Assembly (NCBI GenBank): GCA_024277355.1
Contig: JAJRVL010000004.1
Span: 270,001 to 302,000 of the forward strand
DNA: 32,000 nt
Source of the DNA: an archaeon
GTDB taxonomy: Archaea; Iainarchaeota; Iainarchaeia; Iainarchaeales; 1-14-0-10-31-34
Reading direction: 5' to 3'
Below the pieces are notes generated by a model. It ran no database searches. It had not been told where the DNA came from and saw nothing but the letters and a program-made list of their open reading frames with translations. This document shows positions 21,914 through 22,131 of this stretch, one piece after another. The position numbers were made by a program, and so were the translations under genes. Positions within the stretch are counted from its first letter, which is position 1, and each line of letters opens with the position of its first letter.

Positions 21914-22131
21914 ACTTTTAGAAAAAAAAGCTTTATCAAAACAACTGTTTCGGCAGTTGAGTGCGATGCGCTATCTTTGATAGCGTTGCAATGAACTTTT
22001 CCAAAAAAAGCTTTACCAAAAACTTAAATTTTCTGTATTCCGTCACACAAACCTTTTTAGAAAAAAGGTTTATCAAAAATTAGTTTGCAAACACAAACTA
22101 AACCTTTTTGGAAAAAAGCTTTACCAAAAAC
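21911..22131. repeat. locus L2: four palindromic R units interleaved with a GC-rich core, a copy of the neighbouring gene's 3' end, and a palindromic 20-mer
   Basis: R units lie at about 21913-21942, 21993-22023, 22049-22080 and 22099-22131. Consensus is AAACCTTTTTAGAAAAAAGGTTTATCAAAAA, the reverse complement of the L1 units. Confidence 0.8.
21936..21992. ncRNA. candidate structured small RNA, paralog of the 5' half of the tRNA-Asn intron (strand unresolved)
   Basis: A GC-rich island in AT-rich spacer. Hairpins are CAACUG-UUUCGG-CAGUUG (21942-21959) and GCGCUAUC-UUU-GAUAGCGU (21968-21986). Stem and loop sizes and the 8-nt linker match intron hairpins 1 and 2. Confidence 0.3.

Follow-up and report, generated by a model that had tools for sequence, protein, structure and literature searches.

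A modular GC-rich palindromic repeat family of Iainarchaeota, probably MITE- or REP-like, with a half copy between convergent genes

MITEs, such as the Correia elements of Neisseria, are non-coding sequences of ~100 nt with terminal inverted repeats, which are intergenic and insertion-polymorphic and whose transcripts can fold into long hairpins. REP/BIME sequences are extragenic GC-rich imperfect palindromes, which are often found 3' of genes, alone or in inverted pairs joined by a linker, and for which roles in termination and mRNA stabilisation have been proposed (PMC3733652). The GC clusters of yeast mitochondria, such as GC42, are short GC-rich palindromes in a very AT-rich genome. They are mostly intergenic, their sites and copy number vary among close relatives, their stems are constrained and their loops variable, and their units merge and reshuffle into larger composites; no dedicated transposase is known for them (PMC4478555). 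Movement of sequence has also been implied for tRNA introns of Thermoproteales, as similar introns are found in different tRNA genes (Fujishima et al. 2010, as summarised in PMC4033280).

The element described here, L2, is located in a window of 32,000 nt (positions 270001–302000 of contig C2) from an archaeal genome, G000, of 1.13 Mb and ~28% GC. A first-pass annotation of the window had described the sequence at 21936–21992 as a free-standing paralog of the first two hairpins of a tRNA-Asn intron in the same window. The sequence is as it was described, and L2 shares homology with the 57 nt at the start of that intron. Our results show L2 to be a solo left half belonging to a GC-rich palindromic repeat family of Iainarchaeota, which is dispersed and modular, and we regard this family, with moderate confidence, as MITE/REP-like and GC-cluster-like. 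Dispersed palindromic repeats are a known kind of element. The gene-end orientation rule of this family is unusual, which leaves a role in marking RNA ends open. No account of such repeats in Iainarchaeota or DPANN was found in the literature.

Family size and architecture

Four structured copies on contig C2 were identified with a regular expression, and blastn-short and nhmmer added many more; a simple regular expression for AAC...GTT hairpins gave too much noise, and a listing of GC islands was over-permissive. Twenty-two copies from G000 and its congeners were aligned (A1), and a covariance model (R1) was built from this alignment. R1 matched ~33 copies in G000 (E<0.01), and the five same-genus genomes (G001 to G005) contained between them 49, 55, 11, 44, and 30 copies. 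Across the phylum, R1 matches were found in 22 of the 151 genomes sampled, usually with 1–6 copies per genome outside the genus. The family total was ~250 further copies, of which ~33 were in G000, 189 in the five congeners and the remainder in further lineages sampled from the phylum. A covariance-model search had been suggested by the first-pass annotation as a check on its claim, and its outcome is many further homologs in the genome and its relatives. A third copy that had been proposed at 4952–5008, however, gave no R1 match, even without filters and at E values of up to 10. An R1 match at 11660–11711 (E 0.39) is a chance one, located inside a 296-aa ORF.

A complete copy of the element forms an imperfect palindrome of ~100 nt, in which H1 plus GAGTRCG is followed by H2, the dinucleotide TA, H3, and CTCGTRCTC plus an inverted H1. 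The left linker of full elements pairs with the right-hand linker CTCGTGCTC. Full palindromic elements were recovered as tail-to-tail pairs, which are overlapping R1 matches of opposite orientation and made up 36 of the 96 distinct R1 matches. Unlike the full elements, L2 holds the left end only, and inverted H1 is absent downstream of it. On the plus strand L2 reads AACAACTG-TTTCGG-CAGTTGA-GTGCGAT-GCGCTATC-TTT-GATAGCGT-TGCAATGAAC-TTTT, and its parts are listed in Table 1. Its predicted RNA fold has a free energy of -20.8 kcal/mol (z = -2.5), and L2 contains no purine/pyrimidine mirror tract.

Table 1. Coordinates of L2, of its neighbours, and of related copies. Positions are those of the window unless a contig or genome is named.
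Feature	Position	Strand	Details
L2, type B solo half of a GC-rich palindrome: H1, linker, H2, conserved tail	21940..21996	+	R1 70.4 bits, E 2e-17; nhmmer E 8e-9
L2 hairpin H1	21942..21959	+	CAACTG (21942-21947), loop TTTCGG, CAGTTG (21954-21959)
L2 linker, 8 nt	21960..21967	+	AGTGCGAT; family consensus GAGTRCGAT (alignment A1)
L2 hairpin H2	21968..21986	+	GCGCTATC (21968-21975), loop TTT, GATAGCGT (21979-21986); GCTATC/GATAGC module
L2 conserved tail, then T-run	21987..22000	+	TGCAATGAAC; family consensus CTGCAATAAAC
Upstream 118-aa ORF	21557..21913	+	No Pfam match; L2 lies 25 nt past its stop, same strand
AT-rich palindromic repeat separating ORF stop from L2	21914..21941	+	ACTTTTAGAAAAAAAAGCTTTATCAAAAC
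Second AT-rich repeat copy, 3' flank of L2	21993..22030	+	Direct relative to left copy
Convergent 69-aa zinc-ribbon ORF	22132..22341	-	Zn_ribbon_Top1; 3' end ~135 nt from L2
AT-drifted family copy	22440..22507	+	R1 13.5 bits, E 0.04; antisense to tRNA-Thr(CGT), abuts its 5' end
tRNA-Asn(GTT) gene	14469-14634	-	Rfam tRNA 53.7 bits; ~95-nt insert after position 37
Repeat-derived body of tRNA-Asn intron	14531..14598	-	R1 62.7 bits, E 2e-15 (window, filters off)
Intron-body hairpin H1	14596-14579	-	
Intron-body hairpin H2	14570-14552	-	
Intron-body hairpin H3	14549-14531	-	
Intron 3' part	14505..14530	-	CTTATTCCACCTATGTGAAAGCAGAT; not repeat-like
Full elements, G000	C11:69302-69402; C1:2668-2768; C2:239708-239808		C1 element in tRNA-Arg(GCG) intron
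Full elements, congeners	G005 L008; G004:C13:21773-21879		
H1 next to tRNA 3' ends, sense	G000		tRNA-Ser(GCT), Ala(GGC), Met, Gly(CCC), Ile(TAT)
H1 next to tRNA 5' ends, inverted	G000		tRNA-Gly(TCC), Ala(TGC), Leu(CAA), Gly(CCC), Glu(CTC)
H1 next to other 5' ends, inverted	G000		Unannotated tRNA C11:69235-69306; 23S rRNA
H1 next to other 3' ends	G000		RNase P RNA (C7:21768-22061, 111.7 bits); 23S rRNA
H1 at exon-intron junctions	G000		tRNA-Asn, tRNA-Pro, tRNA-Arg(GCG)
H1 at stop codons	G000		Several ORFs

The identities between L2 and the copies at C2:108311 (c108), 126270 (c126), 230592 (c230), and 314011 were 85–95%. H2 of L2 carries a private compensated change from U:A to C:G relative to its sibling copies (pair 35:52, with CG in 15 and UA in 6 copies). 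The most conserved module of the family is H1 plus linker. The type of tail found in L2 is also present in c108 and c126 and in genomes G001, G002, and G003; moreover, it terminates the trailers of tRNA-Ile, tRNA-Ser(GGA), tRNA-Ala(GGC), and RNase P RNA. The copy at C2:314011 is a type B copy into which an extra unit of an H1-like hairpin and H2 is inserted, which illustrates the modularity of the family.

The AT-rich repeat beside L2 belongs to a family different from that of L2, with another sequence and another architecture. The junction at which TTATCAAAAC is followed by AACTG is identical at L2, at C2:314011, and in G004. Given that L2, C2:314011, and the G004 copy with the identical junction all have this AT-rich box upstream of them, that the fold is stable, and that the sequence of H1 plus linker is conserved, L2 and C2:314011 could be independent sRNA genes, which would be transcribed from the BRE/TATA-like AAAAAAGCTTTATCAAAA upstream and give a trans-acting or protein-binding RNA of ~55–125 nt. 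However, the box is itself a dispersed palindromic repeat, which also occurs within tRNA introns and at the ends of tRNAs, there in both orientations. With the usual geometry of archaeal promoters, TATA at 21928–21935 would put the start ~26 nt downstream, within H1, and this spacing makes an independent sRNA gene unlikely. Moreover, most copies, namely c108, c126, and c230 as well as those in the trailers of tRNAs, RNase P RNA, and 23S rRNA, are without the box and adjoin a gene end. No Rfam 15 family matched L2 at the gathering threshold, and the matches found at E up to 10 were at chance level; at the other family copies, Rfam matched only neighbouring tRNAs, rRNAs, and RNase P RNA. Inspection also showed that the motifs of known guide RNAs are absent: neither L2 nor the full elements have a box C (RUGAUGA), as a C/D guide would, and the hairpins are 6–8 bp long without the internal pocket of an H/ACA guide. 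A K-turn is likewise ruled out for L2 by inspection, as the boxes are absent. We thus consider an independent sRNA gene quite unlikely.

L2 and the intron of tRNA-Asn

The tRNA-Asn intron starts with AACAACCG-CTCACT-CGGTTGA-CGCGTGT-GCGCTAC-ATAAA-GTAGCGC. The paralogy with compensated stem changes that had been claimed for L2 and the intron is confirmed by the R1 scores of the two (window search, filters off; Table 1), and the paired change from C:G to U:A in H1 is real. A shifted register, which had been read into H2, was not found: structural alignment puts both H2 stems in the same register, as H2 of L2 merely has one extra closing pair. The similarity of the two copies taken alone is only moderate. 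Their pairwise score was 11, compared with 3.6 ± 1.8 in the shuffle control that had been named for this purpose, which is only modestly above chance, and the score was reached in 27 of 5000 dinucleotide shuffles and in 5 of 5000 structure-preserving shuffles. Those 27 shuffles would leave some room for a chance resemblance between two pairs of GC-rich hairpins. However, this is refuted by the family, with E-values of 2e-17 and 2e-15 for the two copies, ~250 further copies, and covariation at 14 of 14 pairs, and we assign almost no probability to it. The family evidence for homology of L2 and the intron is decisive.

The body of the intron corresponds to two-thirds of a full element, counted from the left. 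Over 79 nt it shares 86% identity with a free-standing full element of G004 (contig C13), and free-standing full elements of G004 (86%) and G002 (85%) are its best matches. The end of the intron, GAAAGCAGAUA, is shared with the tRNA-Asn intron of G003, which is 114 nt long and otherwise unrelated, having only the last ~11 nt in common; as paired by eye, this end supplies the helix opposite the anticodon. Pairing by eye further indicates that C32 to U35 can pair with GCAG near the 3' end of the intron, with 3-nt bulges on both sides, and that H1 would stand in place of the inner helix of a putative bulge-helix-bulge. The second tRNA-Asn gene of G000 has an AT-rich intron of 43 nt.

As L2 and the intron are members of one repeat family, their likeness reflects common descent and not an origin of L2 from the intron. 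An intron-derived RNA, in which L2 would be the reinserted descendant of the excised tRNA-Asn intron or of an intron mobile at the RNA level, would agree with the common 5' module starting exactly at the first bases of the intron and with the junctions of many copies being RNA processing sites; intron transposition is also documented in Thermoproteales (PMC4033280). However, L2 is much nearer to its four non-intron siblings than to the intron, and the nearest relatives of the intron copy are themselves free-standing. In addition, one half of the element in the tRNA-Arg(GCG) intron is antisense, other copies come after stop codons, and L2 is without exon-like flanks: neither ARAGORN nor Rfam found a tRNA at 21900–22100, where the flanks consist of an ORF stop and AT-rich repeats. 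An intron origin of L2 is therefore very unlikely. The mobile module in several contexts that the first-pass annotation had considered was the right kind of idea, although an intron-derived module of two or three copies was not, given the ~33 copies in G000.

To our knowledge, the main evidence on intron gain in archaeal tRNAs has so far been the likeness among introns of Thermoproteales. The repeat family is a candidate source of intron bodies, beyond transfer from intron to intron. One family is found here in four states, i.e., free-standing, in leaders and trailers, filling spacers between tRNAs, and as an intron body at position 37/38, and its presence or absence among congeners provides natural before-and-after sites for studying intron gain.

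Covariation, turnover, and known repeats

Covariation was counted in an alignment of the 96 distinct copies (A2). In A2, 92.8% of the cells paired, and all 14 pairs changed on both sides (355 cells). The covariation score was reached by no shuffle, and slid controls collapsed; a test of covariation once more homologs were at hand had been recommended by the first-pass annotation. H1 was paired in 99% of its cells, and all six of its pairs covaried. The stems of A2 contained 1227 Watson-Crick, 6 G.U, and 14 A.C pairs (1328 cells), and 24 tRNAs of the same genome had 230, 34 (13%), and 8, respectively, in their acceptor and T stems. The deficit of G.U in the repeat relative to the tRNA stems had a Fisher p of 5e-21, perhaps partly inflated by picking copies with a model trained on Watson-Crick seeds. 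As the stems are nearly pure Watson-Crick, without excess of G.U over A.C, the palindrome is kept strand-symmetrically, which is expected for hairpins at the DNA level or for use in either orientation. The paired changes had been taken as a sign of selection on RNA structure, a conclusion that does not follow from stems of this kind in copies that occur in both orientations relative to transcription. Strand-symmetric covariation is not the usual signature of a single transcribed RNA structure, nor is it proof of one. Covariation in palindromic repeats alone thus does not demonstrate a functional RNA.

The copies turn over, as indicated by a filled and an empty site, a 44-nt duplication, and lineage-specific sites. 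At the stop codon of a conserved gene whose product ends in FFYP, a hairpin is located 0–3 nt downstream in G000, G001, G003, G004, and G005; the family variant differs among these five genomes, and G002 has no hairpin. G001 and G002 differ at this site by a single 62-nt gap, both flanks of which align cleanly. Copy c126 is bracketed by a locus-specific direct repeat of 44 nt that is found nowhere else in the genome. No GC-rich element was found 3' of the orthologue of the ORF upstream of L2 in G005, which is the sole orthologue, or at the corresponding place beside the zinc-ribbon orthologue in G001. No flanking target-site duplication was common to c108, c230, or the full elements, the 44-nt repeat being confined to c126, and L2 is uninformative in this respect because it is located between two copies of the AT-rich repeat. 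A search with PF01797 found a Y1/RAYT transposase in G005 only and none in G000 and G001 to G004, and this transposase search turned up no parent insertion sequence whose ends are those of the repeat.

How the repeat is copied we infer from these patterns. Turnover would take place in the DNA, where copies would be inserted, lost, or replaced at the same site, and their hairpin modules would merge and reshuffle. They would persist where they are harmless, i.e., outside mature RNAs, past stop codons, and in introns that are excised by the splicing endonuclease. The need for the palindrome to work on either strand would keep its stems strictly Watson-Crick, and this need could arise from DNA hairpins in copying or repair, from use in either orientation, or from both.

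In behaviour, the palindromic GC clusters of yeast mitochondria are the nearest analogue of the family, which has in common with them all of the traits given above (PMC4478555). However, the repeats described here are on an archaeal chromosome and not in an organelle, share no sequence homology with the yeast clusters, and are larger, with halves of 57 nt and full palindromes of ~100 nt. Different from the yeast clusters, their hairpin end abuts the ends of tRNAs, rRNA, and RNase P RNA as well as stop codons in a fixed orientation, copies make up the body of protein-spliced tRNA introns, and no short flanking duplication of the AG/ACT type was seen. Similar to REP/BIME, the family consists of extragenic palindromes, often 3' of genes and found singly or as BIME-like inverted pairs, for which roles as terminators or stabilisers are proposed. 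Different from REP/BIME, H1 is flanked on its outer side by (A/T)AAC and carries neither a GTAG nor a CGTC tag; their host is an archaeon, G000 and four of the five congeners lack a Y1/RAYT gene, and copies occupy tRNA introns and adjoin the ends of mature RNAs. Similar to MITEs, the repeats are non-coding and intergenic, measure ~100 nt, have terminal inverted repeats in the full elements, can fold into long hairpins when transcribed, and differ in presence and absence between relatives, but they have no consistent target-site duplication, their ends are themselves hairpins, and many are solo halves like L2. As in the introns of Thermoproteales, intron sequence appears to have moved between genes. 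Compared with those introns (PMC4033280), however, the family is mostly found outside introns (leaders, trailers, and 3' flanks of ORFs), in either orientation, and as a palindromic DNA repeat.

Copies at the ends of genes

In G000 the outer side of H1 is located a few nt from gene boundaries of various classes (Table 1). Full elements fill whole spacers, such as those from tRNA-Ser to tRNA-Leu, from an ORF stop to a tRNA, and from exon to exon. A 32-nt motif, GTCGTGCATCGTGCTYAAACGGCGAAACGTTT, which precedes tRNA-Gly(TCC), tRNA-Ala(TGC), and the 23S rRNA, is the reverse complement of H1 plus linker. Of the solo matches at all loci examined, 22 had a tRNA or ORF boundary within 12 nt of their H1 side and 2 had one near the tail side alone. 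Roughly half of the copies in total lie within composite arrays, where they adjoin other modules. The type B cassette is also the end piece of several tRNA trailers and of those of RNase P RNA and 23S rRNA. Moreover, all four ORF-associated solo type B copies, L2, c108, c126, and c230, are each located between convergent genes.

From this position and from its sequence, we infer that the repeat at L2 probably serves as a 3'-end hairpin between convergent genes. A transcript of either strand would present hairpins and then a U-run, which makes L2 a candidate terminator, 3' stabiliser, or insulator. On the minus strand TTTTGATAAA comes directly after the inverted H1, and the two resemble a terminator by consensus match only. 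On the plus strand the T-run comes after H2 only past the 10-nt tail, and T4 runs are very common at 28% GC.

The same placement raises the question of whether H1-linker-H2 is mainly a functional cis-acting RNA signal at gene ends rather than a mobile repeat. Such a selected cassette could terminate transcripts, help to process their ends, protect them against exonucleases, or insulate folding tRNAs from their AU-rich flanks, with gene conversion keeping the copies alike. It would account for H1 abutting the ends of tRNAs, 23S rRNA, RNase P RNA, and introns as well as stop codons, for the asymmetry of 22 vs. 2, and for the H1-type hairpin with which 13 of 37 tRNA trailers begin. The hairpin past the FFYP stop codon in five of six genomes, although with different sequences, also points in this direction, and both the asymmetry and this retention fit a selected RNA-end function at least as well as neutral tolerance. 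In addition, the leader and trailer of 23S rRNA contain inverted copies that can form a duplex of -73 kcal/mol. In the joint fold, however, local hairpins compete with this duplex, and it shows no canonical 3-4-3 bulge-helix-bulge, for which reasons a processing stem of 23S rRNA was rejected. Further evidence against a selected cassette is that only a minority of genes have the element, many tRNAs having plain AT-rich flanks, and that the orthologue in G002 is without the hairpin and relatives have nothing inserted at the site of L2. The range of copy number among congeners (11 to 55), the half of the copies that are away from boundaries, and the absence of wobble tolerance on the transcribed strand also argue against it. 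We regard a selected cassette as possible but doubtful, and favour a mobile palindromic repeat.

The 24-mer AACTGTTTCGGCAGTTKAGTRCGA, which comprises H1 and linker, was found exactly in 7 contigs from other MAGs. Its exact occurrence in MAGs of different taxonomic labels suggests sequence-specific recognition by some candidate factor. H1 plus linker could be an RNA-end recognition signal, a kind of hairpin punctuation, at the outer base of which a nuclease, a binding protein, or the tRNA-processing enzymes would act, and the element would be the part removed from precursors of tRNA, rRNA, RNase P RNA, and intron-bearing RNAs. We hold this to be improbable. In the boldest form of this idea, copies would spread as RNA that is cleaved and ligated at processing junctions, and the coincidence of element borders with processing sites would thereby be explained. 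The orientation rule and the strict Watson-Crick covariation are unusual both for a repeat that is simply selfish and for a simple RNA motif, and suggest a testable link between repeat biology and the formation of 3' and 5' ends of RNA in genome-reduced DPANN archaea.

The window also contains the AT-drifted copy next to tRNA-Thr(CGT), which is an inverted copy within the leader of this tRNA. The orthologous tRNA-Thr leaders of G001, G002, G004, and G005 have H1-type hairpins at the same place, and this retention in all five of the congeners that have that tRNA is a further point in favour of a selected cassette at gene ends.

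AT-rich repeats and the tRNA genes of the source genome

The solo left-half (type-B) copy L2 of the GC-rich palindromic family was flanked by AT-rich palindromic repeats of the CCTTTTTAGAAAAAAGGTTTATCAAAA type. Repeats of this type, in either orientation, also directly adjoined the ends of tRNAs, 5' as well as 3', and they constituted the introns of tRNA-Ser(GCT) and tRNA-Asp(GTC). The AT-rich repeats look like BRE/TATA plus oligo-T elements, and they share with the GC-rich family the rule that the hairpin is directed toward the gene. Introns of 74–150 nt were found in about 15 of the approximately 40 tRNA genes in the source genome. 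Two tRNA genes missed by ARAGORN were found with Rfam, and two that contain introns were misnamed by ARAGORN, of which Ser(aga) reads Asp(GTC) and Leu(cag) reads Leu(CAA).

Coordinates of the described features (C2, C7 and C11, contigs of the source genome G000; L handles, loci or contigs of other genomes)
Feature	Location
AT-rich palindromic repeats, CCTTTTTAGAAAAAAGGTTTATCAAAA type	window 21914-21941, 21993-22165, 5040-5175; C2:349019-349178, C2:313782-313983
tRNA genes missed or misnamed by ARAGORN	C11:69235-69306, C7:1061-1143, C2:313782-313983, C2:349305-349539
Inverted GC-rich copies flanking 23S rRNA	C7:28372-28429, C7:31461-31527
44-nt direct repeat bracketing c126	C2:126227-126270, C2:126333-126376
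H1-type hairpin against tRNA-Thr 5' end, in leader; tRNA-Thr adjoins GlyRS	window 22440-22507; L010-L013
~1.1 kb insert, tRNA-Thr(CGT)-like gene near GlyRS	L011:3220-4242 (G002); same place in L012 (G004)
87-nt tandem array with exact 24-mer AACTGTTTCGGCAGTTGAGTGCGA	L124:1609-1877; 24-mer also in L127, L122

GC-rich copies at 23S rRNA and at c126

The leader copy at 23S rRNA was inverted and the trailer copy direct. The two are predicted to be capable of forming a ~60-bp stem that extends past helix 1, in which no canonical bulge-helix-bulge motif was recognised. Another type-B copy, c126 (62 nt), had on both sides a 44-nt direct repeat (43/44 identical) present at this locus alone. This repeat may be a target duplication of unusual length, or it may have been left behind by a tandem duplication.

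Observations in congeners and in MAGs of other labels

All five congeners with the tRNA-Thr beside GlyRS possessed an H1-type hairpin, resembling the first hairpin of the GC-rich family, in its leader; this hairpin was GC-rich in three and AT-rich in two, including the source genome. In two congeners, G002 and G004, a tRNA-Thr(CGT)-like gene was split just 3' of the anticodon by an insert of ~1.1 kb, which codes for a 340-aa LAGLIDADG protein (PF14528, E 3e-10) and would represent a tRNA intron, or an insertion, that carries an ORF. The source genome lacks this insert.

The array containing the 24-mer, in a MAG labelled Woesearchaeota, had 2.9 copies of its unit with 88% matches, and the 24-mer was also present in two MAGs labelled Methanosarcinales, there too inside repeated units. 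No Rfam match was found. The 24-mer's presence under these labels may reflect mislabelled DPANN bins or horizontal spread.
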